This document shows, piece by piece, positions 25,489 through 51,194 of a stretch of 53,627 bases of DNA. The first letter of the stretch is position 1. Every line of letters begins with the position of its first letter. Source of the stretch: a virus (taxonomy: Duplodnaviria; Caudoviricetes). The notes below the pieces were generated by a model, which was not told where the DNA came from, made no database searches, and saw nothing but the letters and a program-made list of their open reading frames with translations. The stretch lies in the IMG/VR virus record IMGVR_UViG_3300044951_001798, positions 1 to 53,627 of that record. The stretch is one strand, 5' to 3'. A program made the translations under genes and the position numbers.

Positions 25489-25929
25489 TCACCAATCCAG
25501 TATCATTTGGTAGAGACGCAACACCCTGAATAAATGCCCCTTAACGTAAATATCCTTGGAGTGTTTTTTATAATGCAACATTCTCATCAAAAGAAGATCA
25601 TGAAAAGAATATTGATTCATAAATTCTCTAAGATCGCCATTTATGAGAGTTTTTAACGTTCCTGGCCCTTGATTGACGCAAGTGTCGAAGCATACCAGAT
25701 CAAATGGAAAAGGTAGGTCGTCACATCCTGCTTTATCCCAATACTTTGTCTTGTAGATAATCGCAGCCTTTTCGATTGACATATCTCGTGTTACCTCAGG
25801 ATTATACCTTGACGATAACCCCCACACAGTAAATCCACCACCTGCATTCCCAGGATCGTGTTGATCGGTAGAAAGTTTCCCCTCCAGTTCCAGTACTGCT
25901 CTCAGCGAGCGGTCGAAATTACGCTTCAT
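25489..25929 (-). CDS. Endolysin, glycosyl hydrolase family 108
   Basis: LEG..HDPG..T.WG..AAIIYKTKYW..FDTCVNQG. Confidence 0.88.
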   Translation of the reverse strand: MKRNFDRSLRAVLELEGKLSTDQHDPGNAGGGFTVWGLSSRYNPEVTRDMSIEKAAIIYKTKYWDKAGCDDLPFPFDLVCFDTCVNQGPGTLKTLINGDLREFMNQYSFHDLLLMRMLHYKKHSKDIYVKGHLFRVLRLYQMILDW

Positions 25930-26482
25930 CACATTCTCCTTTTTTATCAGTAGCTCTACGGCCAAATGGCGCTGAAATTATTGCACTGTTTGCTCGTAAT
26001 TTCAATGCTTTTTCCAACTCATTAATCCTATCTGTATGATCAGATCGTTCTCTCAAAACCAAATCGTGGATGCTGAACATGGCTTTATTTGATTCCTGAT
26101 TAGCCATAATTGTAGCAAGTTTCTCATGGATTTCAAGCCAGCAAGCATGCGTTTTGTTGTTAGCTTCATGCCGTTTTAAATCCTGCAAATTTATGCACGC
26201 TTGTATTTCATCAATTTTTTTTTCTAAAGAATCCCTTACTTTATCTCTGCTTTTAATACAGTGCGCTGTTTCTTCTTCACACATTGTCTTTGTCATAACA
26301 TGCTTCATGTCCTTGATATAATAATCCTCCATGCTTTCGACTTTAGTTTCAAGTTTTTCAATTACTTTCCTAAGTTCGTCGAGAACTCTGATGTTATTTT
26401 TGAATACGAATGCTGCACCACCAAAAGCAAATGAGAACGTAATAAGCGGTATCAGAATGTCAATGTGGTCGAAGATGTTCAT
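25919..26482 (-). CDS. N-terminal TM plus coiled-coil protein (lysis-associated)
   Basis: Single TM then heptad-rich region; overlaps endolysin start. Confidence 0.55.
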   Translation of the reverse strand: MNIFDHIDILIPLITFSFAFGGAAFVFKNNIRVLDELRKVIEKLETKVESMEDYYIKDMKHVMTKTMCEEETAHCIKSRDKVRDSLEKKIDEIQACINLQDLKRHEANNKTHACWLEIHEKLATIMANQESNKAMFSIHDLVLRERSDHTDRINELEKALKLRANSAIISAPFGRRATDKKGECDEA

Positions 26483-26849: not shown

Positions 26850-27074
26850 TTAAAAGCCTCCCTTGATGTTCGCCCACATTCTCACCCCAATCCATGCCAG
26901 CATTGCCATTGCAGGATGCCCTTTACTCGCTATACAGCGTCTTAACTCACGATCCGCTGCAAGACGTATAGCTGCTGATTTACTTTCCAAAGCAAGCACA
27001 CAGCCCGCATCATGCGCCTGTCAGCACTCTATCCAGTTTCCGTTTGGGAATCCTGTACAGCGGTTATCCTGCAT
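26850..27074 (-). CDS. PLA2-like CCxxHD protein with in-frame TGA (candidate selenoprotein, or pseudogene)
   Basis: MQDNRCTGFPNGNWIEC*QAHDAGCVLALESKSAAIRLAADRELRRCIASKGHPAMAMLAWIGVRMWANIKGGF; TGA at 27021-27023; fills the gap between coupled neighbours exactly. Confidence 0.7.
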
Positions 27075-27693
27075 TGATAATATCTTTCTTCGCCCAGGTA
27101 TCCGCAAGGAACATCTGTCCCCACACAAAAACCTCGGCAATCATCTGACTTGCGGCTGCAAGTGAAACATCATGGACTGCATTATCATAATCCCTGATTG
27201 ATACAGTCGAAGGTTGAAACGCTGATAACCCTACCATTAATTGAGTCCATCGAACTAACGATGTCTCGTCAACTTGCAACTTGATCCCATTCGAGCAAGT
27301 CATTCCTGCGTCCTGAATTGCTTTTTGGGATATTGCAAGATTCGCAAGAGCCTTTTGCTTGTTGATCTCAATTATCTCTTCTGGAGTTTTTCCATAAAGT
27401 GGATCACGTTTTAACTCTTCCAAAGCATCTCGCTCAGCACGATTAAGATACTCAGGATTCTCTATGTATTCTTCATCTCCAGTATCATCGCTTCTCCCAA
27501 TAGAGATATATTTTGCATCAAAATACTCTTGACGGTATTTATTGATTTTCTCTTGAATAGCAAATTCAAGATTATTGGCTATAGCATTGTCAATCCAGGC
27601 TTGTGGGTCAACTATGCAGTGAGCGAGGATCGCGTTGTCTTCTGCAATCTGCTCAGGTGTTTTTGTGACTATGATCGGTTCTTCTATTGGCAT
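27064..27693 (-). CDS. Tail-fibre assembly / DUF4376-like protein
   Basis: C-terminal GIKLQVDETS..IRDYDNAVHDVS; follows a fibre gene. Confidence 0.6.
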   Translation of the reverse strand: MPIEEPIIVTKTPEQIAEDNAILAHCIVDPQAWIDNAIANNLEFAIQEKINKYRQEYFDAKYISIGRSDDTGDEEYIENPEYLNRAERDALEELKRDPLYGKTPEEIIEINKQKALANLAISQKAIQDAGMTCSNGIKLQVDETSLVRWTQLMVGLSAFQPSTVSIRDYDNAVHDVSLAAASQMIAEVFVWGQMFLADTWAKKDIINAG

Positions 27694-27708: not shown

Positions 27709-29397
27709 TTAGCAGACGAGATGGCCGGAAAAATAAGACTCGTCACCTATGTCAACTTGTTGAGTTCCAGAACCTTGATAAACTTCTATCTGTGCGGTAT
27801 CTCCAATATCCATATCAGCTAAAATCAAAAATGGAATATTCCATCGAACCAAAGCTCCCAAATCTACTGCAAATGAATGTCTGCGATTCGATGTTACCAA
27901 CTCAATAAGATAATACGTACTGACAGTATTGTTTAAATAAATAGCACCAAAAAGTGCATATTTACCAGTCATTGGTGCAGTAAGAGCATTTGAGGCAAAA
28001 TTATTAGATTGATCAAAAATTTCTGTCCCCCACACCACAACTACGCGTGATCCAACTGCGATATTTTCCTGGACCGACGCTGGTTTCACCAAAAACGCCG
28101 GTTGAGCAGTATTCACCCTCGGCACATTCAACTTCCTCGTCAAACTCCAACCAGTAGCAGGGTAACTCGCATTTAAAGCATTGGAGGATGAGTCATACCA
28201 AAGATTATTTTGAATTCCCTCTGGCTCCAGTGCGAGAGTTGCTCCTATTTTCACCAAAGAACTTGAATGCGCCCAATGAGTAGGAGTTGTTCCAGTCGCA
28301 ATGAATTCATTTCCTGTAACATTTGTACCACCAATATTAGTAAAATCGTCATCAGACACATAAGTATTGATTCTGTATTTGTAACCAACTACCAGTGTCC
28401 CACTTGTGATAGCTGTTTGTGATCCCCATTTGTCAGAATAACTAATCCCATTCCTGTACAAAGCAAGCACTTCCGCTGCTGTTAATGCTCGGTTGTAAGT
28501 GGCGGCGAAGGAGCAGGTTCCGGCATTCCTGGCATCGGAGTCTCCCATAACATATAAAGGATTTGTACTACTTAAACTTCCATGAGTATTTGCTTGAATA
28601 GTCAATGAAGTATCTAATACTCCATTAATATATAAAGAAGCATTTCCAGCGTTACTAACAGTCTCGCGCGTTATAGACCAAACAATTTCTGCAATAGTGG
28701 CATCTGGAATAGTATTAGCATTAGATTGTTGATAATAAAATGCACTTCCCACACCAGCAGGAAGAAACGTTGCCATTTTATTTGTGGTCAACACATATAA
28801 AACAAAATTGCCCTTTCCCAATAGTAATATTGATATTCCAGGTGTCCAATCCGGCAAGCTTCCTCTCCACACCAGAGTAAAGTTACCAGTCCCAAAATCA
28901 ATATTATCATTATCAGCAACCGTAATCCCACTACTCCCACTCGCAGCATAAGTCATATTCACCGCTTGATCTGGAAGTCTCGCAAGTACTGCATCCTGTG
29001 ACTTTGCATATGCTGTGGTTGCAAGTGCTGTTGTAGCAGTGTTATCTGCTGCTGTTGCTGTTGTGCAAGCTGTGAGGACACCAGCACTTGGTGTACCTAA
29101 GTTCGGTGTAATCAGCGCAGGAGACGTTAAAGGAGCCTTTGCGCTCAAAGCCACTGTTTCATCAACAGTCAGCGTTTTTGAAGTTGTTCCTCCAGCGAGG
29201 GTAAAGCCTATACTCAAAGCAGTTGGTGTTAAAGCATTCACTGTAGCTCCTGTAAGAGTTGCCCCTGATAACGATGCTTTAAGAGCCAGTGCGTCAAACA
29301 CACTATTCCCATTTGGAGCATGAGTAGTATCACCATCTGAAATACTCGAAGCAATTGAAATAGTCGAAGAGCCATATATACTGGATAGTATTGTCAT
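27709..29397 (-). CDS. Tail fibre / receptor-binding protein with LamG-like and C1q-like domains
   Basis: Thr/Ala-rich shaft; DFGTGNFT..LYING..YNRALTAAEV (LamG); PAF..FDQSNNF..TAPMTGKY..SYFSGHLV (C1q). Confidence 0.75.
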   Translation of the reverse strand: MTILSSIYGSSTISIASSISDGDTTHAPNGNSVFDALALKASLSGATLTGATVNALTPTALSIGFTLAGGTTSKTLTVDETVALSAKAPLTSPALITPNLGTPSAGVLTACTTATAADNTATTALATTAYAKSQDAVLARLPDQAVNMTYAASGSSGITVADNDNIDFGTGNFTLVWRGSLPDWTPGISILLLGKGNFVLYVLTTNKMATFLPAGVGSAFYYQQSNANTIPDATIAEIVWSITRETVSNAGNASLYINGVLDTSLTIQANTHGSLSSTNPLYVMGDSDARNAGTCSFAATYNRALTAAEVLALYRNGISYSDKWGSQTAITSGTLVVGYKYRINTYVSDDDFTNIGGTNVTGNEFIATGTTPTHWAHSSSLVKIGATLALEPEGIQNNLWYDSSSNALNASYPATGWSLTRKLNVPRVNTAQPAFLVKPASVQENIAVGSRVVVVWGTEIFDQSNNFASNALTAPMTGKYALFGAIYLNNTVSTYYLIELVTSNRRHSFAVDLGALVRWNIPFLILADMDIGDTAQIEVYQGSGTQQVDIGDESYFSGHLVC

Positions 29398-29408
29398 CTT
29401 ATTTCCTT

Positions 29409-31532
29409 TTAAAATGTAGAAGAACTCTGGACTGTACACGGATCAAATAAAGCATAAGAACTCCCACTTGCTCGCTTTGCGCAAATCCTGAAAACCAATA
29501 ACATATCGTCTGCTTTGGTATAGGATAAAGCTGATGATTGCCAGTCAGAACTATCAACCGCAATCCACTCTGCAAGTGGTGTATTCGACACAGAAACAAG
29601 CGGATCAGCAGCCAAACTAATAATCTGGAAATGTAGTCTTTGATCCGCTGTCAAGCCTGTCGCATCATGCTTTGCAAACACAGGAAACTGTAAATAATTA
29701 CTTCCTGTCCTGGATATTTCCCAGTCAAAGACATTCCAAAACCCGCCATCAACGTAATTGAATTTATGACTATACGCATGATTAGCAGGGACTACAGTTG
29801 TTTCATGGGTTAGTGTGCCACCAGCAGACCAGCCACGGGTATCGTTTGCAATCCCACCGTACTTGAATGCTCTTCCTCTGATCAGCGGCCCTGCGGTTAT
29901 GCCAGAGTATGTCACATCAGTTGTGTTGCCTGAAAATGAACCAAGAAATAAAAATCCTGCGTAGTTAACGCCGGAGGAACATCCAGAAATAACACCTGAT
30001 ACAGTATGGCCAGAGCCAGAGTTAACGCCGGAGGAACATCCAGAAATAACACCTGATACAGTATGGCCAGAGCCAAAGTTAACGCCGTAGGAACATCCAG
30101 AAATAACACCTGATACAGTATGGCCAGAACCATAGTTAACGCCGTTGAAACATCCAGAAATAACACCTGATACAGTATGGGCAGAGCCAGAGCTAACGCC
30201 GTAGGAACATCCAGAAATAACACCTGAGATAGTGTGACCAGAGCCAGAATTAACGCCGATGGTACAGCCAGAAACAACACCTGAGACGGTGTGACCAGAG
30301 CCAGTGTTAACGCCGGAGGAACATCCAGAAATAACACCTGATACAGTATGGCCAGAACCATAGTTAACGCCGGAGAAACATCCAGAAATAACACCTGATA
30401 CAGTATGGCCAGAACCACTATAAATAGCACTGTCTGCTCCAGAAATAGTCCCTGAAAAAGTATGGCCATAACCTTGGTTAACACAACGGGAATAAAAAGT
30501 TACACCAGTTCCACTACTATTTCTTAGCTCACAACCTATTTTATTCCCCGTGAACGTGCTTACCCCATAATCTATTATTGCCTGAGATGCGGAAGTGCCA
30601 GCAGATCGTACAGATACATTCCGGCTGATTAAGTGTATCTTTGCACCAGGATATTGAACAGAGTCCACATTCGCTGATAAAACAATTGTTCCAGCATTAA
30701 TTGTGGTTAGCTGTAATCTTTGCTGGTCATAATTTTGCGGCCCAGCGTTAGCCAGAACGACGTGATCGTGACCATCAGTTGTTACCCATCCTGTGACAGC
30801 CGTAACGTCATCCAGAACATTTATAGTGGCTGTACTGGTGCTGGTATGGCCGGTATAAACATCTATATCACCAGTGCCATCAGTGGTTAAATCAATTACC
30901 AGTCCCGCTGAATATGCAGCCAGCTTAAACGTATCAGTTGCGGTACTCACTACAAAGTATATCGTATCTGGTTGCAGCGGCGCAGGAAGTGTCCCAGATG
31001 ACATAATCATTACAGCCGTTGCATTCGCTAAGCCGTGACTGGTTTTGGTTAGGGTGTCAGCAGAAGCCGATCCCGTGACTCTGTGCTTAACGCCATAAGT
31101 TCTTACAGACTTGACCGACGGTTCATAATCATAGAGCATCAAGTCAAGATACAGAGCATCAATCTTGGATGTCCCCTGTAAATCAATTATTGCTTTATCT
31201 GCATACGGAAGTGCTGTTGTTCCTGCAAAGGTTCCTTCCGCATTAGCAACTAATTGTCCTCGATTCGCAAAGTTTGTTCCGACTAAATTATAACCAGTCC
31301 TGATTTTAAGATGTCCTGATGTTCCTGCCTTAAAATACAGCATTCCCGGAGTTGTGGCATGTCCTGATATTGTAACTGTTTGTAGTCCCGTGTATGCACT
31401 TAAGTCGTCATTCATCAGGACTTCATGACCTGCTGCAATCACAACAGCATCATTATCAGCAGGCTTAACCCCTCCTACCCAAGTTGCTCCTGTTGCCCAC
31501 GCTCCAGAGGCATTTGAAGTTATAGTCGCCAT
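29409..31532 (-). CDS. Tailspike-like protein with G8-like N-terminus and beta-helix repeats
   Basis: SGAW..ATWVGGVKP..DAVVIAAGH; HGL..GTLP..L..YFV..FKLA insert; 19-aa repeats. Confidence 0.7.
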   Translation of the reverse strand: MATITSNASGAWATGATWVGGVKPADNDAVVIAAGHEVLMNDDLSAYTGLQTVTISGHATTPGMLYFKAGTSGHLKIRTGYNLVGTNFANRGQLVANAEGTFAGTTALPYADKAIIDLQGTSKIDALYLDLMLYDYEPSVKSVRTYGVKHRVTGSASADTLTKTSHGLANATAVMIMSSGTLPAPLQPDTIYFVVSTATDTFKLAAYSAGLVIDLTTDGTGDIDVYTGHTSTSTATINVLDDVTAVTGWVTTDGHDHVVLANAGPQNYDQQRLQLTTINAGTIVLSANVDSVQYPGAKIHLISRNVSVRSAGTSASQAIIDYGVSTFTGNKIGCELRNSSGTGVTFYSRCVNQGYGHTFSGTISGADSAIYSGSGHTVSGVISGCFSGVNYGSGHTVSGVISGCSSGVNTGSGHTVSGVVSGCTIGVNSGSGHTISGVISGCSYGVSSGSAHTVSGVISGCFNGVNYGSGHTVSGVISGCSYGVNFGSGHTVSGVISGCSSGVNSGSGHTVSGVISGCSSGVNYAGFLFLGSFSGNTTDVTYSGITAGPLIRGRAFKYGGIANDTRGWSAGGTLTHETTVVPANHAYSHKFNYVDGGFWNVFDWEISRTGSNYLQFPVFAKHDATGLTADQRLHFQIISLAADPLVSVSNTPLAEWIAVDSSDWQSSALSYTKADDMLLVFRICAKRASGSSYALFDPCTVQSSSTF
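29958..30413 (-). repeat. Eight tandem 57-bp coding repeats (SGHTVSGVISGCxxGVNxG)
   Basis: GTTAACGCC recurs every 57 bp (29964, 30021, ...). Confidence 0.95.
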
Positions 31533-31542
31533 TTCAGCCTCC

Positions 31543-32268
31543 TTATTGAATGATTAACCCAGCAGAAACCCAGGTGATTGATGTTGCAAGAGCATTGACA
31601 TTAAGGCAAATAACATCCCCTGCTGTTACTGTTTTTGTCCACCCTGTCAAAGTCAAATCCTCAACCGTTTGAGCAGAGGAAAGAGTGATGGGCGCCGAAG
31701 CAGATATAATATCCGCAATAGTCGGGGGAAAGTTTGCAAAAGTATCTTTCCAAACTGCTATTTCTATGCTGCCTGAAACATCCGCCATTGCGTAAGCACC
31801 AATAATAGTTCCTGAATTTGCCACTCTGAAAAATGCTTTCTTCCCAGCGACTATTGGAAGTCCTCCACCATCAAAGACAACCCCTCTATATTTATTTTCT
31901 ACTGTAGTTACAGGCAAACCAATTTCTGAAACTATATCCCATCCGCGAGTACTGTCAACATACACAAGCTCAAATCCTGCGCCATTTAAATCAATCACAA
32001 GGTCTTCAGCAGCTCCCTCAATCTTATTCCCGTTCCTTGCAATAGTAATAACATTGGTTGTTGCTTTATTGTAAACATCACAAGCACTTACAGTGTCACC
32101 AGCACTGGGAGTCGCGGGCAAAGTTAACGTAACATTCCCTGCACTTGCATTTATTAAGTACCCATTTCCCGTGACAGCGTCCGTGTTACCTGTGATTATA
32201 CTCCATGTAATCCCGCCACCAGCATGAGTATGATCTGAATATGCCAGTTTCTTCCATGTAACAGCCAT
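31543..32268 (-). CDS. Fibre/baseplate-type structural protein starting MAVTWKKLAY
   Basis: TLTLPATPSAGDTV..TIARNGNKIEG..LVYVDSTRGW domain plus C-terminal jelly-roll. Confidence 0.65.
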   Translation of the reverse strand: MAVTWKKLAYSDHTHAGGGITWSIITGNTDAVTGNGYLINASAGNVTLTLPATPSAGDTVSACDVYNKATTNVITIARNGNKIEGAAEDLVIDLNGAGFELVYVDSTRGWDIVSEIGLPVTTVENKYRGVVFDGGGLPIVAGKKAFFRVANSGTIIGAYAMADVSGSIEIAVWKDTFANFPPTIADIISASAPITLSSAQTVEDLTLTGWTKTVTAGDVICLNVNALATSITWVSAGLIIQ

Positions 32269-32480
32269 CAGTCACCTCCAATAAACTTCTGATTAGCCAT
32301 TTCCACAGCCTCAGTTAAAAGCAATTGGAGAACAGTAATGACATGAGTGATAGGAAGTTTTGCCTCAGAAATAAATCCCACGAATCTATTATGAAGATTT
32401 CCCATTGTCTCAGAATTCTTATCCTCATAATTTTTAAGGATCATCTCCACAATTTCATTTGGTATTTGTCTTTCTTGCAT
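32268..32480 (-). CDS. Small helical protein (possible chaperone)
   Basis: GGAGG RBS; TGATG coupling. Confidence 0.5.
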   Translation of the reverse strand: MQERQIPNEIVEMILKNYEDKNSETMGNLHNRFVGFISEAKLPITHVITVLQLLLTEAVEMANQKFIGGD

Positions 32481-32589
32481 TCTCTTCCTCCTGCAATCTT
32501 CTCTGTTCTCGCAATTCTTTTAAGGACATTGGGGGTTTCACATCTTCTTTCTTCTTTTGTTCTTCCTCAAGAAGCTTTCCCCTCAACAT
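32455..32589 (-). CDS. Small charged protein (44 aa)
   Basis: AAGGAGG RBS; MLRGKLLEEEQKKKEDVKPPMSLKELREQRRLQEEENARKTNTK. Confidence 0.55.
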   Translation of the reverse strand: MLRGKLLEEEQKKKEDVKPPMSLKELREQRRLQEEENARKTNTK

Positions 32590-32598
32590 AAATCCTCC

Positions 32599-33129
32599 TT
32601 AAACAGCCACAGTGCAAATATGAAAAGTCAGTTCTGATGTTGCAAAGAGAATCTTCCCCACTACAGGAGTTGCATAAGCAGATACAGCCGCTTCGTTTGC
32701 CACAGCTTGAACAACGAAGTCTGTTCCTGAAGCTGCTTGTGTAGCCCACTCAAGCGCAGTTGCTCCTGTGTTTACTCTCAAAATCTGAAGTCCGGTTCCT
32801 TTGGCGAGTGTAGTCGCTGTCCCACTACCTGAACCAACAACCAGCATTCCAGCCGCAGTAAAATCACTCTCCATAACAGCGCCAGCAGCCGCTACATTGG
32901 TTGCATCAGTGACATCCGCTCCAGCCTCCACGTTAAGAATTGTAAGCGCCTCAGCAGCCGATAAAGCCACAATACCATCAGTTGATTTTCTACCCACTAT
33001 CGTTGATGCTGCCACAGTCAGAACTGTAGGAGTATTATCTGAATCTGCTCTCAAAATCGAATAAGCATCATAATCTGCTTTTGCTACCACATCCCCAGCA
33101 TACGCTAATTTTTTCCAAGTAACGGCCAT
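32599..33129 (-). CDS. Fibre-like structural protein starting MAVTWKKLAY
   Basis: EAGADVTDATNVAAAGAVM and GTGLQILRVNTGATALEW fibre motifs. Confidence 0.65.
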   Translation of the reverse strand: MAVTWKKLAYAGDVVAKADYDAYSILRADSDNTPTVLTVAASTIVGRKSTDGIVALSAAEALTILNVEAGADVTDATNVAAAGAVMESDFTAAGMLVVGSGSGTATTLAKGTGLQILRVNTGATALEWATQAASGTDFVVQAVANEAAVSAYATPVVGKILFATSELTFHICTVAV

Positions 33130-33148
33130 TTTCTTTAATTCCTTTTAT

Positions 33149-33505
33149 TTAAACACCAGTACAAACCATCACGCTTTTATCAACTGAATCATACCAAAGT
33201 CCGCCTTCTATATCCAAAATTGCAGCAATCGCTGGTGTCAACACAATCTGATTAAATTGAATCGGTTCGCTTTTGACTTCCCAAGCATTTTCAGTTTCAT
33301 TCCATCTAAGAAAATCTCCGGTTAGGTCTCCAGGGATAGCCCCAACTGCATCAACACCAGGAAGGCCGTCAATGCCTATGACTCCATTTATACCTGGGAT
33401 TCCTTGAGGCCCCCTTTCAATCACGCTTAAAACTGTAACGTCCCCTACAGTTGTAATGATCACATCGGGATTTGTTGTTGTACTTGTAATGAGTATATCA
33501 CTCAT
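33149..33505 (-). CDS. Short collagen-like fibre protein
   Basis: GPQGIPGINGVIGIDGLPG; GDFLRWN; GGLWYDS. Confidence 0.6.
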   Translation of the reverse strand: MSDILITSTTTNPDVIITTVGDVTVLSVIERGPQGIPGINGVIGIDGLPGVDAVGAIPGDLTGDFLRWNETENAWEVKSEPIQFNQIVLTPAIAAILDIEGGLWYDSVDKSVMVCTGV

Positions 33506-41336: not shown

Positions 41337-41768
41337 TTACGTTGTTTTACCAATAAGCGTCTGAAACTGAAAACTGGCTGTATCAGGGATCGTGTAGTCC
41401 GTCCCAAAATCAATGCAGCAATACACGGTGTCATCACTGGTGGTGTCATCATAAATAATCGCTGATCCAGTCGGGCCGATGTCCCCAGCAGCCGCCGTCC
41501 AGATCACGTCATCCCACACGGTTTTACCGCAATCAAGCGCGTCATCCTCTGTGACAACAGAGTTTGTCAGCGCCTTGTCGTTCTGGGTATATCCGTAATT
41601 TGTAGCAAGCTGATCCGCCGTAACATCCGCCAATGTCGCATGAGCGTCTTTGTCGAATGCAAATGTAGTATTCATCAATATGGCCTTAAAAACATCTGTG
41701 TCCATATTGATCAAAGCCTTGTCTTTTTGGTATTTAAAATGATTTGATACTGTAACTACGACTGCCAT
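41337..41768 (-). CDS. Tail structural protein (paralog 1)
   Basis: QLATNYGYTQNDK.L..WTA..IGP. Confidence 0.65.
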   Translation of the reverse strand: MAVVVTVSNHFKYQKDKALINMDTDVFKAILMNTTFAFDKDAHATLADVTADQLATNYGYTQNDKALTNSVVTEDDALDCGKTVWDDVIWTAAAGDIGPTGSAIIYDDTTSDDTVYCCIDFGTDYTIPDTASFQFQTLIGKTT

Positions 41769-41780
41769 AATAACCTCCTT

Positions 41781-42212
41781 TTATGCTGATAAATTAATCC
41801 CGATTGTCTTTATTTGCAGGATAAAACCATTGGGAGCTGTGTATTCCGTCCCGAAGTCAATGCACATCACCACGGGTTTTTCAGTGACTGTGTTGTTGTA
41901 CACAATCGCGGCTCCTGCAGGGCCGATGATACCTCCTGATGCTGTCCAGGACACGTCAGCCCAGGTAGTGCTTGCAACACCGGTGATACGATTTTCAATA
42001 AGGGTGACACCGGACAATGTTTTGCCATTTTGCGTATATCCGAATCCTGTCGCCAACTGACTGGCCGCCACTGCCGCCAGGTTGACATGAGTTGCCGGGT
42101 TGAATATGAACGCAGGATTCATCAGGATAATGACGAACACGTCACTGGACTCGTCTATGGCTTTGGTTTTGAGCAAATACCTGTAATGGGTGGGGACGGT
42201 GACTGAAACCAT
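41781..42212 (-). CDS. Tail structural protein (paralog 2)
   Basis: Same length (143 aa) and motifs as neighbour: QLATGFGYTQNGK.L..WTASGG.IGP..CIDFGT. Confidence 0.65.
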   Translation of the reverse strand: MVSVTVPTHYRYLLKTKAIDESSDVFVIILMNPAFIFNPATHVNLAAVAASQLATGFGYTQNGKTLSGVTLIENRITGVASTTWADVSWTASGGIIGPAGAAIVYNNTVTEKPVVMCIDFGTEYTAPNGFILQIKTIGINLSA

Positions 42213-46122: not shown

Positions 46123-47130
46123 CTACTCCACCAACTTGACAAGTACACCTGGTCTAAAGCACATTGGAAGAGGATTTGACTGCATGTGGAGATTGATACC
46201 ACGGTTGAAGTCTCTGACTTCCTGTTTTGCGTAAAGTGGAATACCGATGGTGTTTACGGTTTCGAGAAAGTCAGCCGGTGCGTAAATGGTTTTGAAGGTA
46301 TTCATGGTGCCCTGCGGATAGCAATGGCCTTCTCCGTCTGCGATGAATTTTCTTGCAGTTCCGGTAGCGTCGGTCGCCGTCCCACGGTATTCTTCAAACA
46401 TAATACCGCCATAAGCAAAACCCTTTCTAATATCGCCACCCATGGCCTGCGCTGCAAGGATGGTGTTATCAAAAGTAGCCTTAACGGTTGTATGGCTGGT
46501 GAGCGCATCGAAGAAACTGGCTGATACAAGCGCTCTGGGCATGGTCATTACTTCACCCATGAGATTATCCTCCATGAGACGAAGCACCTGCATACACTTG
46601 CCACGGACATCTGTGGTGGTTGTGGACAGATCGAAATCGACGTATTTCTGATCGATTCCAAATTCAGTGTAAAGATTATACAGAAGGGACCCGTCTGCAT
46701 CCAGGATGATCCCCTTCAATGCGCCCATTCTGAGATATTCGAGGGTGATTGCGTACTTATCCTTGGCGGCTTGCATATGGTTGTTCATGACACTTGCGAG
46801 CGTCTGTACCTGATTATCTGTACCGAATTGACGGACAGATTCAAATTCAGATGCAAGAATAACGTCACCAAGGGGAATGTGGGGTACCGCGAACGCTCTG
46901 ACCTTGCGTTTGCCCATTCGGTTCTGTTGTTCGGGAGACCCGACAGGCTGGGTTGAAAGCAAATTGAGAACGCCGTTTTGTTCCTCGACGAGTGCGACGC
47001 GGGTTGTTATGCCTTTGTCGGTGAAAATACCAAGCTCTCTCAGCCGACCGTAGGTATTAGGCAGGATATTGATTGCGTTCGAAAGCGAAACAAGATTAAA
47101 CGCATCTGTTTCAAAAGGGTTAAGTATCAT
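46123..47130 (-). CDS. Major capsid protein (lambda gpE family)
   Basis: AINILPN.YG..TLEYLRMGALKG.ILDADG..QSNPLPMC.RP. Confidence 0.93.
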   Translation of the reverse strand: MILNPFETDAFNLVSLSNAINILPNTYGRLRELGIFTDKGITTRVALVEEQNGVLNLLSTQPVGSPEQQNRMGKRKVRAFAVPHIPLGDVILASEFESVRQFGTDNQVQTLASVMNNHMQAAKDKYAITLEYLRMGALKGIILDADGSLLYNLYTEFGIDQKYVDFDLSTTTTDVRGKCMQVLRLMEDNLMGEVMTMPRALVSASFFDALTSHTTVKATFDNTILAAQAMGGDIRKGFAYGGIMFEEYRGTATDATGTARKFIADGEGHCYPQGTMNTFKTIYAPADFLETVNTIGIPLYAKQEVRDFNRGINLHMQSNPLPMCFRPGVLVKLVE

Positions 47131-48373: not shown

Positions 48374-48892
48374 TTATTTATTCTTTAAAATGGACTCTGC
48401 TCGTTTCTTTGCATCTTCCATAAGTGGATTGGCGTCTGTGGTCGCAAGTGCGCCGACTGTTGATACAATCGTTACCTGTTCTGATACTTTGGCCTTTGCA
48501 TCGAGGATAACCTGTTTTGCCTGATCAAGAGACAAACCATCACGAATCATGGTTCCTGCGAGCGCTGGCATTCCCATAGACTCGCACAAATCAACAATGT
48601 CGGTTATCGCCGTTACTTGTTCAGCTTTTTGTGCAGCAAGTATCTGTTCGACAGTGGCTTCTGTAGCTTGCTCTGGTTCTATCGGATCTACGATAAAACC
48701 ACCAAATGTTGCTCGATTTTGCAAATCAGCCGGAGGGACACCGACAGCAGTACTTTCAGCAAAGGTTCCTTGGGGTAAAAGTGATTCAATACGAGAAAGC
48801 AAAAGACTTTGTTCGGTAAGTATCTTTTTAACTTCATCCATATTGTCGGCTATTGCCTGTGTGACGACTTCCTTTACTTCGTTAAGATTCAT
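48374..48892 (-). CDS. Internal in-frame scaffold protein (Nu3-like)
   Basis: GGAGG 7 nt before the internal ATG of MNLNEVKEVV. Confidence 0.55.
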   Translation of the reverse strand: MNLNEVKEVVTQAIADNMDEVKKILTEQSLLLSRIESLLPQGTFAESTAVGVPPADLQNRATFGGFIVDPIEPEQATEATVEQILAAQKAEQVTAITDIVDLCESMGMPALAGTMIRDGLSLDQAKQVILDAKAKVSEQVTIVSTVGALATTDANPLMEDAKKRAESILKNK

Positions 48893-49753
48893 GCTAACGC
48901 CTCCAGTTTTTAAAATCATATTTTTAACGATATTATCTATGGATAGAATGCCGTCCGCAAAACCAATATCAACTGCTTCCTTACCCATGAAGAACCCTGC
49001 CTGTGTCGCCACAACTGCTTCCTGTGACATGTTCCTGTTGCGAGCAACGACAGCAGTGAATTTGTCGTAAAGCTTATCAACGTGTGCCTGTAATATTCCT
49101 TTGCATTCTGGCTTCAATGATTCGTGCGGACTGAAATCATTCTTGTGCCCACCGGCGAAGATGGTTGTGTATTCAACTCCGATTTTCTTATCAAAATCAG
49201 CTTGGTTAATGTGAATTGCTATCACGCCAACTGATCCAACGGAAGCAGTGTCAGAAAGATAAATCTCGCTTGCAGCGGAAGCGATTGCATAAGCAGCGGA
49301 ATAAGCGGATTCTGCGGCCACGGCTATAATTGGTTTAATCTCTCTGGATTTATAAATTTCTTCTGCAAGATCAAACAAACCGGCGACTTCTCCGCCAGGT
49401 GAATCAATAAGCAATAAGATGCTTTTGACTCGTTCATCGGATAAAGCAGCACGAAAAGTGTCACGGATATCAAGATATGATGTAATCCACCATTCATAAG
49501 CTCGATAAGTAAGACCGCCTGAGATCTCCAAAACTGCGACGTCACCTGTTATTGCGTATCCATTGTCAGATCGTAAAACTACAATGCCAGAATCAGCGTA
49601 AGCTTGAACATCGTTGACGTGTTTTTTTTCTGTATCGGGCGGTGGCGGTTTTGATCCAGTCGCTTTAACTGACAGAATTTCGTTGACTGATTGTGGCGCA
49701 ACCATCAATGCTGAATTAAAAAGTCTTGTTGGTATTTCCAATATTCCCTCCAT
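48374..49753 (-). CDS. S49 head maturation protease / scaffold (gpC)
   Basis: IDSPGG, SAAYAIAS, GSVGV, EAVDIGFAD. Confidence 0.92.
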   Translation of the reverse strand: MEGILEIPTRLFNSALMVAPQSVNEILSVKATGSKPPPPDTEKKHVNDVQAYADSGIVVLRSDNGYAITGDVAVLEISGGLTYRAYEWWITSYLDIRDTFRAALSDERVKSILLLIDSPGGEVAGLFDLAEEIYKSREIKPIIAVAAESAYSAAYAIASAASEIYLSDTASVGSVGVIAIHINQADFDKKIGVEYTTIFAGGHKNDFSPHESLKPECKGILQAHVDKLYDKFTAVVARNRNMSQEAVVATQAGFFMGKEAVDIGFADGILSIDNIVKNMILKTGGVSMNLNEVKEVVTQAIADNMDEVKKILTEQSLLLSRIESLLPQGTFAESTAVGVPPADLQNRATFGGFIVDPIEPEQATEATVEQILAAQKAEQVTAITDIVDLCESMGMPALAGTMIRDGLSLDQAKQVILDAKAKVSEQVTIVSTVGALATTDANPLMEDAKKRAESILKNK

Positions 49754-51194
49754 TTTGTGGCCTTGAGTCAGAATCAAATACCAGACCTAACTTGTCAGCA
49801 CGTTCGTTATCTGCCTGGATTTCTTCTTCGAGCGCCTCCACGTCTATTCCTCGTTCAGCAACTTCCTGTGTCCGTGAAGAAAACCCGGATCGAACAAGGC
49901 CAGATGATGCCTTTAAGTCTTTCAATGGATCGACCCATGGCCAGCCGTCGATTGTCCATTTGATCCTCATGTATGATTTTGGGTCTTTTGTGTATCCCGG
50001 TAACCGCATGGCATTTGATAACTCGACCTGAGAAAGCCAATACTTGGCAACCGGTCTGCATATCTGATATGCCATGACATTGAAAATAAACTGCTTGCAT
50101 TGCCGTTGAAATTCGAGATTGCCGGCACGGATAGAGGAATAAGTCACTCCGGACAGATCTCCGGTGAATTTCTCGTAAGTTAAGCCGCCGATGCCACGAG
50201 CAGCACGTTGTTCTTGGTGTTTGATGAAAGACCCGTAATTACCGCCGACATCTGCTGGTTGTGAAAATGTCACGTTGTAACCAGGAGGAAGTGATGGGAA
50301 TGTACCGGGTTCCATCTGTATTTGAAGAGCACCTGTATCATCGGTGCCATCGTCACTACCAAAGAACGGTACTGCATTTAAATCCTCTGCTGGCTGTGTG
50401 ATAAAACCACCAAACATGGCAGCAGTCTTCTTGCGTACCAATTCTGCATCGTTGAATTGATTAAGTTCGTGCATTGTCAATATAAGGGATGCAAGCCATG
50501 GGCGACCTCGTTGTTGTCCTGGACGAAGTGGGTGAAAAACATGAAGTATCTCCGATGCTGGGATCCGAACCCTGTCGAACTGATCCTTGAGAGTCATGAA
50601 TACTTCGCCTGGATGTTCTTTAAATATCCAGTAGGCGACACGTTTACCTGATTTATCAAACTCTATGCCCATGCGTATTTCGTTACCGTTTGGAGCGATG
50701 GTGTTGTAAGTTTCATCAAGGTGATCAGCCTCAAGTATTTGCAATTGAAGAGGAACCAAAAGACCCCCAGACCGCTTTGGACAAAACCGGATAAGAACTT
50801 CTCCGGATTCGATAATTGACCGGGCTATAAGAGACTGTAATCCATAAAAATCAAGGAAACCACCTGCGTCAGCTTCCTGTGTCCAGTCAGACCAGAGTTG
50901 TTGTATTCTCTTTTTGAGTTTGGAATCAGTCAATTGCCATCGGGGAGAGATACCTGTCCCAACGATGTTGGAGACCAGGCAATCAATCGCGCCACATATC
51001 TGAGGATCATTACGAGATAACTCACGAGAACGAGACCGCAGAAGAGATAGTGATGAATAAATTGTTGCATTAGGACCTGCGGATGACGTGCCCCAATTTG
51101 ACAATCGCCTGCCATTCCCTGCGCCTTCGAAAGGTGGGGAAGATCGCATATCAATTTTGCGGCCCTTACTGTCAAGTATTCTCAGAAAAGACAT
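49716..51194 (-). CDS. Portal protein, lambda family
   Basis: LRSRSRELSRND..RPGQQRG.P..TGDLSGVTYSSIRAG..WVDPLKD. Confidence 0.95.
   Translation of the reverse strand: MSFLRILDSKGRKIDMRSSPPFEGAGNGRRLSNWGTSSAGPNATIYSSLSLLRSRSRELSRNDPQICGAIDCLVSNIVGTGISPRWQLTDSKLKKRIQQLWSDWTQEADAGGFLDFYGLQSLIARSIIESGEVLIRFCPKRSGGLLVPLQLQILEADHLDETYNTIAPNGNEIRMGIEFDKSGKRVAYWIFKEHPGEVFMTLKDQFDRVRIPASEILHVFHPLRPGQQRGRPWLASLILTMHELNQFNDAELVRKKTAAMFGGFITQPAEDLNAVPFFGSDDGTDDTGALQIQMEPGTFPSLPPGYNVTFSQPADVGGNYGSFIKHQEQRAARGIGGLTYEKFTGDLSGVTYSSIRAGNLEFQRQCKQFIFNVMAYQICRPVAKYWLSQVELSNAMRLPGYTKDPKSYMRIKWTIDGWPWVDPLKDLKASSGLVRSGFSSRTQEVAERGIDVEALEEEIQADNERADKLGLVFDSDSRPQNGGNIGNTNKTF

Follow-up and report, generated by a model that had tools for sequence, protein, structure and literature searches.

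The DNA considered here is the whole of virus record IMGVR_UViG_3300044951_001798 (53,627 bases, hereafter the window; estimated completeness 56%), and our subject is a set of small genes in its fibre region whose products are likely to be joined end to end. On the minus strand this region runs in the order A (118 amino acids, aa), B (176 aa), an open reading frame (ORF) of 44 aa, X (70 aa), C (241 aa), two proteins of 707 and 576 aa, and a DUF4376-like protein; as read from the sequence, each gene of the cassette has a Shine-Dalgarno-like stretch of its own upstream of its start. Two kinds of chain end recur in A, B and C, namely a donor (plug) peptide at the N-terminus and an acceptor (socket) module at the C-terminus. 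Gene A (33149..33505, minus strand) encodes a candidate base protein with the acceptor end only, gene B (32599..33129, minus strand) a shaft protein in which the alignment of relatives reveals both ends, and gene C (31543..32268, minus strand) a distal protein that, by its sequence and monomer model, has the donor start only. Production of an A-B fusion by read-through or frameshifting was considered and rejected, because the start of B lies 19 nucleotides (nt) after the stop of A and in another frame, B has a ribosome-binding stretch of its own, and the corresponding gap in relatives ranges from 2 to 659 nt.

Protein A consists of a variable N-terminal part, a short collagen-type run of seven uninterrupted G-X-Y triplets (residues 32-52, GPQ GIP GIN GVI GID GLP GVD in the translation; 33350..33412, minus strand), and a conserved C-terminal portion of ~60 aa that is common to otherwise different proteins. 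It matches the collagen-like minor tail family phrog_1806 weakly (expectation value, E, 0.0021), and its triplets suggest a trimer with a putative triple helix. Searching 50,697 phage records by tblastn with A and with B gave no match, and no cultured relative of the split system emerged. Upstream of the socket, residues 64-80 of A (33265-33316, minus strand; GDFLRWNETENAWEVKS) resemble, by eye, a complete small hairpin-plus-strand of the same general type as the socket (G..L.W.....W), and related motifs may be present in A twice, once closed and once open.

The first ten residues of B and of C are the same, MAVTWKKLAY. The two 30-nt stretches that encode them differ at 6 of 30 bases, all of the differences being synonymous, and in 44 aligned relatives of B, W5 and A9 are invariant while M1, K6, K7, L8 and Y10 are at least 90% conserved, against a mean column identity of 52%. 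The occurrence of one peptide in differing synonymous codons, together with its conservation in the relatives of B, indicates that the donor peptide is under selection at the protein level, as the initial annotation of this DNA had proposed. Outside the decapeptide B and C are unrelated, B being composed of a ~70-aa shaft repeat and C of two beta domains. A degenerate 20-nt pattern for MAVTWKK (up to 2 mismatches) matched exactly twice in the window, whereas two or more matches occurred in 0 of 100 dinucleotide shuffles, and no third copy of the decapeptide is present anywhere in the record. The donor peptide of B is delimited as residues 1-11 (MAVTWKKLAYA; 33097..33129, minus strand), residues 1, 3-8 and 10-11 of which lie at the interface of the complex model described below, and that of C, on sequence, as residues 1-11 (MAVTWKKLAYS; 32236..32268, minus strand). 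Both donor ends are unstructured in monomer models: residues 1-17 of C have a predicted local distance difference test score (pLDDT) below 50, and residues 1-16 of B are coil with a pLDDT of 56. An identical peptide in two otherwise unrelated proteins also speaks for a different explanation, in which MAVTWKKLAY docks B and C separately on one tail or baseplate site and the similar C-terminal ends discussed next are a common fibre-terminating motif. The adenovirus fibre tails and the N-termini of T7 gp17 are examples of such docking tails. Shared N-terminal anchors among the receptor-binding proteins of one phage are described as frequent in the accessible part of one source (PMC12143355), and the accessible part of another describes the anchor domain of TSP4 (PMC8825819).

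At their C-termini, A ends GGLWYDSVDKSVMVCTGV and B ends GKILFATSELTFHICTVAV, related tails of the type ...G..φ.[YF]......φ.φCT.., so that the similarity previously noted between the ends of the 118-aa and 176-aa proteins is confirmed as quoted. A six-frame regular-expression scan of the window found exactly two donor-type starts and two acceptor-type ORF ends, and no uncut copy of the module to which, as set out below, these ends correspond; a third match, on the plus strand, was dismissed as spurious since it runs across a stop codon. The acceptor module of A comprises residues 88-118 (VLTPAIAAILDIEGGLWYDSVDKSVMVCTGV; 33152..33244, minus strand) and corresponds to the first two thirds of a contiguous module from which the last strand is absent. 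That of B, delimited by profile alignment with the uncut module and by the monomer model, comprises residues 151-176 (AYATPVVGKILFATSELTFHICTVAV; 32602..32679, minus strand) and is a beta hairpin in the monomer model, with strands at 160-163 and 168-171.

The contiguous form of this module, which had been described earlier as a knob motif of phage fibres, is real and abundant. A DNA pattern for Y.CT-xxx-TWK[KR].A gave at least 120 matches in viral stretches, and the module is also found in tail proteins of cultured phages. All 120 of the matches listed translate to the uncut module, whose consensus, ...TP.S.S..G..G.I.WD..YIYVCT...TWKRVA...W, stands at the C-terminal end of many phage tail proteins: in 119 of the 120 the match lies 16-19 residues from the end of the ORF, the sole internal one (L061) being 325 residues from the end, and among the matches listed the ORFs with a terminal module measure 73-1583 aa. 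The module forms the C-terminal end of phrog_17312 ('tail protein'), phrog_21017 and phrog_37350, of a Klebsiella Webervirus tail fiber protein (phage MagicalPorter, WWD15170.1) and of structural proteins of T4-like cyanophages. In protein P0145, three shaft repeats of the type found in B are followed by a CBM-like domain and then by the C-terminal end ...GKAGQVCWDTSYIYVCTATDTWKRVAIATW, so that the same shaft repeats are joined to an uncut module. Among the 120 longer relatives listed, none has a socket followed by a plug fused inside one chain, and P0145, at its C-terminal end, has the sole uncut copy in this set. No Pfam family reaches its cut-off for the uncut module, the shaft repeat or X, and no solved relative in the PDB was found by sequence for P0145 or for the profile of the uncut module; the PDB matches which that profile did give are to designed beta-propellers (E 0.006-0.8) and are regarded as chance.

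To compare the cut and uncut forms, a profile of 40 uncut tails (A5) was aligned by hhalign with profiles of the A family (A2) and the B family (A3). The alignment with the A family (E 5.1e-4) ends at residue 117 of A and that with the B family (E 3.3e-4) at residue 174 of B, and both are in one register, TP...A...G..G, strand, turn, Y/H-x-C/A-T, stopping at 'CT'. The chains of A and B themselves end 2-3 residues past CT, and no TWK[KR].A...W strand comes after CT in either of them. On this comparison, the strand absent from the ends of A and B is exactly the TWK strand, which opens B and C. The uncut terminal module thus resembles the split one in register (TP...A...G..G, strand, turn, Y.YVCT) and in its TWK[KR].A strand, which has the sequence of the donor peptide, and differs from it in that its last strand continues the one chain and the protein terminates with the module, whereas in the window that strand opens the product of the next gene.

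The A-B joint was modelled as a complex of three copies of A residues 56-118 and three copies of B residues 1-91, with custom alignments. The runs scored 0.92, 0.92 and 0.91, compared with 0.14 for the best of three controls, and they agree in at least 97% of contacts, with partner pLDDT of at least 89. The predicted interface joins A residues 95, 98, 106, 109 and 111-118 to B residues 1, 3-8 and 10-11. Its closest residue pairs (A:B 112:8, 114:6, 115:5 and 116:4) have numbers that sum to a constant, which identifies an antiparallel strand pair, and in the model residues 111-116 of A are paired in this manner with residues 4-8 of B. The pairing fits a hairpin cut at its turn and corresponds to that of C...W in the uncut YVCT...TWK; Y10 of B contacts a neighbouring A chain as well. 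That the model merely reproduces a memorised structure is unlikely, because no solved relative was found by sequence for the uncut module or for P0145. The earlier suggestion that the knob is completed in trans is supported for the A-B joint by the trimer complex model and by tails that align and stop at CT, while for the joint between B and C we infer completion in trans from the same plug and a homologous socket, both recognised by sequence.

Related loci were collected as 25 viral stretches found by a DNA pattern for the decapeptide alone. Because only the donor pattern was used to find them, acceptor ends in these loci constitute an independent observation. The window and the 25 loci together contain 41 genes with a donor start, two of them with GTG or TTG start codons. 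An acceptor-ended ORF lies upstream on the same strand within 1300 nt of 37 of the 41 by regular expression and of the other four by eye (those preceding B in L001 and L015 and C in L001 and L020). The usual order is an A-type gene, a B-type gene, a small gene and a C-type gene, with A-B gaps of 2 to 659 nt, and the predicted succession of acceptor only, donor plus acceptor, and donor only thus recurs in unrelated viral contigs. L025 and L004 each have a 196-aa A-type gene and, 18 nt further on, the gene of a protein that begins with the plug; in L025 this protein has 330 aa and no socket end, a two-part fibre without a shaft gene in which an A-type socket would take the tip protein directly.

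Separate docking of B and C on one baseplate site fits these observations poorly. It does not account for an acceptor-ended gene upstream of 41 of 41 donor genes (four by eye), for the equal numbers of donors and acceptors in the window, or for a peptide that matches the missing strand of a module contiguous elsewhere, and the complex model pairs the peptide with the last strand of A (0.92, against 0.14 for the best control); we consider this explanation quite unlikely. The same loci bear on the idea that the ends have no assembly role and are recombination module boundaries, or relics of one fibre gene broken by mutation or assembly error. Tail-fibre genes are mosaic, and the shaft repeat, the XD1-like domain of C and its second domain each occur in many architectures, which is in keeping with such boundaries. 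The ends are, however, conserved at the protein level in different codons, the split recurs in ~19-20 distinct viral systems in which every gene starts independently and A is separated from B by 2 to 659 nt, and in the window B is out of frame with A and has a ribosome-binding stretch of its own, so that an origin of this kind appears highly improbable.

We therefore favour, as the likely reading, that A, B and C are segments of one trimeric tail fibre, joined end to end through a domain completed in trans. According to this proposal, A would form the base, a stalk of collagen type that has just a socket; B would form the shaft, with a plug and a socket around a common ~70-aa fibre repeat; and C would be the distal piece, made up of the plug, a GGG linker, an XD1-like domain and a second beta-sandwich. 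At each joint, the small C-terminal beta module of A or B, cut after 'CT', would receive its last strand from the first ~10 residues of the next protein, the plug lying antiparallel against the ...VMVCT strand as in a beta hairpin cut at the turn. The trimeric state of the fibre, its position in the virion, the attachment of A to the tail and the roles assigned here to C and X are putative.

Several points weigh against this proposal. Its support comprises sequence comparison and one model, and the hhalign probabilities are modest, 31% over 28 columns for A and 38% over 22 columns for B. The score mark reached by the complex model is also reached by 58 of 80 solved complexes and by only 2 of 110 mismatched pairs, but these benchmark counts hold only roughly here, since the custom alignments and the 3+3 design differ from the calibration of the tool, and the score itself is a measure of model confidence. 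The trimer in that design is an assumption taken from the G-X-Y triplets and from trimeric relatives of C. As B and C have the same 10-residue plug, the order A-B-C rests on gene order. Many of the related loci are near-duplicates of one another (L002/L023/L024, L003/L011/L013, L004/L025 and L006/L012), which leaves ~19-20 distinct systems; they were picked by the exact plug pattern, and plugs hardly vary among them. The Cys is replaced by Ala or Gly in many A-type ends (YVATE, YVAVE, YVGVA), which makes the motif looser than the one in the initial annotation. In the monomer model of B its own N-terminus stays coil, off its own acceptor, a result that is neutral and uninformative.

The B family is metagenomic and comprises 227 proteins at E<=0.001 among 1592 candidates, and its best-kept parts are its two ends, C172 and T173 also being invariant in the 44 aligned relatives. 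Strict regular expressions for both ends are passed by 93 of the 120 relatives listed, and 19 more are slight variants of both by eye; of the remainder, 2 have one end only and 6 have neither. Variant plugs met with in relatives are MPATWKKLAY, MAVEWKKLAY and MATWKSLAY. The shaft of B itself (residues ~12-135; 32725..33096, minus strand) was assigned to the ~70-aa repeat module by repeat mapping. This repeat occurs in long phage tail fibres (293 proteins at E<=0.001 among 7999 candidates), often in many copies, and these long fibres carry T7 tail-fibre N-terminal, S74 or Mtd_N domains. When the B monomer model was compared with the PDB by Foldseek, nothing matched at E<=0.001. In P0101, P0103 and P0106 one shaft repeat follows a DUF2190 domain (PF09956) that takes the place of the plug, and the socket end is absent; the repeat may be used outside the connector system too.

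The two ends of the B type enclose shafts of 108-257 aa, of 417 aa in P0122 and of 1450 aa in P0121, the last two containing more repeats. Because relatives encode shafts of such different lengths, length is apparently set by the gene, and there is no sign that polymerisation is needed. This bears on the possibility that B adds to B, so that fibres would be beaded, variable in length and capped by C, in the manner of chaperone-usher pili. The identity of the B and C plugs over 10 residues favours it, as nothing in the peptide bars B from entering B; the donor-only protein that directly follows an A-type gene in L025, with no B, indicates that sockets accept different plugs; and the conserved gene X could control the order of assembly. 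The acceptors nevertheless differ at modelled contact positions (D98, D106 and D109 in A versus P155, T163 and L166 in B), and the range of encoded shaft lengths between the same two ends suggests a gene-set length, so that we hold a polymerising shaft to be unlikely. Because the plugs of B and C are identical, any specificity has to come from residue 11 onwards, from the sockets or from X. A broader form of the idea, in which any MAVTWKKLAY-type start enters any ...CT socket, would allow B on B and C directly on A, and three genes would yield fibres of mixed length and with different tips. Such a system would be the viral equivalent of donor-strand-exchange pili, its growth controlled or ended by X; this, too, we judge improbable.

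The distal protein C is more elaborate than the plain cap that was first envisaged for the 241-aa protein. It does have a donor start and no acceptor end, as that description required, but it also contains an XD1/gp10-like domain and a second beta-sandwich. The XD1-like domain (residues 16-120, after the GGG linker; 31909..32223, minus strand) matches by sequence CBA120 TSP4 residues 76-182 (E 5.3e-15) and T4 gp10 residues 46-147 (E 1.2e-5), and by Foldseek 7rfv (E 2.8e-12), T4 gp10 in 5iv5 (E 5.1e-7) and T4 gp9 in 1qex (E 2.9e-6); the mean pLDDT of the C monomer model is 88.4. The second beta-sandwich (residues 124-241; 31546..31899, minus strand) matches phrog_35197 and phrog_10330, is a widespread C-terminal module of many other proteins, and has weak Foldseek matches to CBM4/6/35 modules. 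Both domains are promiscuous, with 16,263 proteins matching C at E<=0.001, and the peptide start is present in only 3 of the best 150 representatives of these matches, C itself included. By analogy with its relatives, C is probably a distal adaptor or binding module, for a receptor or for further receptor-binding proteins. Its layout of peptide, GGG and XD1-like domain resembles the anchor, glycine linker and XD1 of CBA120 TSP4 and of T4 gp10 and gp9, with the peptide and GGG standing where, in the accessible part of PMC8825819, TSP4 is described as having its anchor domain and GGGG. TSP4 differs in anchoring via a triple beta-helix domain of ~80 residues, whereas C has only a 10-residue peptide, and C has no tailspike body. 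From TSP4-N and gp10 it can be suggested that C possibly docks the 707-aa and 576-aa proteins, and its XD1-like domain would then act as a hub for other trimeric fibres or spikes, while the accessible part of PMC8825819 regards XD1 itself as a spacer.

Between shaft and tip lie two small genes, for which a role as chaperones had been proposed. The first is the charged 44-aa ORF (32455..32589, minus strand), which has a strong Shine-Dalgarno sequence, AAGGAGG, and overlaps X by 26 nt; the second, X (32268..32480, minus strand), is conserved in relatives, and an X-like ORF ends within 12 nt of the start of the tip gene at 14 of 16 shaft-to-tip junctions. X has no Pfam match, a PHROG match in 0 of 12 members, and a best atlas score of 0.86, which is below lead level. 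The 70-aa gene, though conserved at 14 of 16 junctions, belongs to no recognisable family, and a chaperone role is a guess. X lies one base ahead of the 44-aa ORF in frame, and the overlap could reflect translational coupling or a programmed +1 shift. Locus L009 is arranged in the same way, with two ORFs that likewise overlap by 26 nt, and a PP[ML]SL[KR]E motif is common to both loci; L010, L021 and L001 have one longer ORF with a charged N-terminal part instead of the 44-aa ORF and X; and in L015 a 325-aa ORF is inserted between the B-type and the X-like gene, the gap being widened to 1196 nt.

In chaperone-usher pili, donor-strand complementation and exchange occur, the N-terminal extension of the next subunit supplying a missing beta strand. 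The joint proposed for A, B and C would resemble these pili in being non-covalent and head-to-tail and in using the N-terminal strand of the next subunit, here according to a model; it would differ in that the partners are probably trimers and the strand completes a hairpin cut at the turn, and Pfam found no pilin, Ig-like, chaperone or usher family in A, B, X or C. The T4 long tail fibre is likewise made from neighbouring genes, gp34-gp35-gp36-gp37, whose products are joined end to end according to the accessible parts of 10.64898/2026.03.06.709160 and PMC12143355. Its rods are joined there by a monomeric kneecap protein, gp35 (10.64898/2026.03.06.709160), and the accessible parts of these sources mention neither a plug peptide common to several proteins nor a terminal module that is split; A and B are without sequence relation to this fibre, and the XD1-like domain of C matches gp34 weakly (E 0.017). 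Binding of a C-terminal to an N-terminal end, as in T4, would agree with the conserved gene order and with the A-B model (0.92 against a best control of 0.14), both of them computational results. Strand exchange between subunits of a phage-derived assembly is also described for the sheath of contractile tails and injection systems, in which, in the accessible part of PMC13266070, N- and C-terminal strands complete the sheet of a neighbour; the sheath differs in protein family and forms a helical mesh rather than a linear fibre joint.

Multi-protein fibres, branched spike complexes and strand exchange are thus each already known. The full-text literature searched, which left most subscription journals and supplements outside, gave no description of a terminal fibre module that is split and comes with a common plug peptide, and neither the string TWKKLAY nor TWKRVA was found in it. 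If the proposal is correct, a ten-residue plug and a socket of ~30 residues would make up a portable, sequence-recognisable connector that strings fibre segments together in many uncultured phages, and it would account for a large number of short phage genes labelled 'hypothetical', among them the 227 proteins of the shaft family. Annotators could then predict which fibre genes contribute to one fibre and in what order, and phage engineers could use it as a natural minimal handle to exchange tips or extend shafts, with no interface to redesign. A module found both whole and split between two genes would also be direct evidence on the evolution of multi-protein fibres.

The structural module in which the cassette lies opens on the minus strand with the portal (49716-51194), followed by a protease-like protein (48374-49777) and the major head protein (46123-47130), all on that strand, and after the head genes come large tail proteins of 1435, 273 and 762 aa and then the fibre region. 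Downstream of C, the 707-aa protein (29409..31532, minus strand) is fibre- or spike-like, with about ten SGHTVSGVISGC-type repeats and, at its N-terminal end, a match to the Pfam G8 domain that is below cut-off (E 3e-4). Its residues ~365-520 consist of ~10 tandem copies of a ~16-residue unit, GSGHTVSGVISGCxxGVNx, that create a long spurious ORF in another frame (29912-30484), and this repeat part is probably a beta-helical spike or fibre body. The 707-aa protein may be a receptor-binding protein that docks on C. The next protein, 576 aa as listed (27709..29439, minus strand), is a lectin-like fibre protein, with a Laminin_G_3 match just below the Pfam cut-off (E 8.7e-6), and its start is more likely the ATG at 29397. 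The last gene of the fibre module encodes a 209-aa protein (27064-27693, minus strand) with a DUF4376-like C-terminal end, again just below the Pfam cut-off (E 1.1e-4). Lysis-type genes follow the fibre module, among them an ORF (25489-25965) that is lysozyme-like by eye only. The tail module also contains a tandem duplicate, adjacent 143-aa genes at 41337-41768 and 41781-42212 (both minus strand), each of which matches phrog_644, a family of unknown function, with E about 1e-11.

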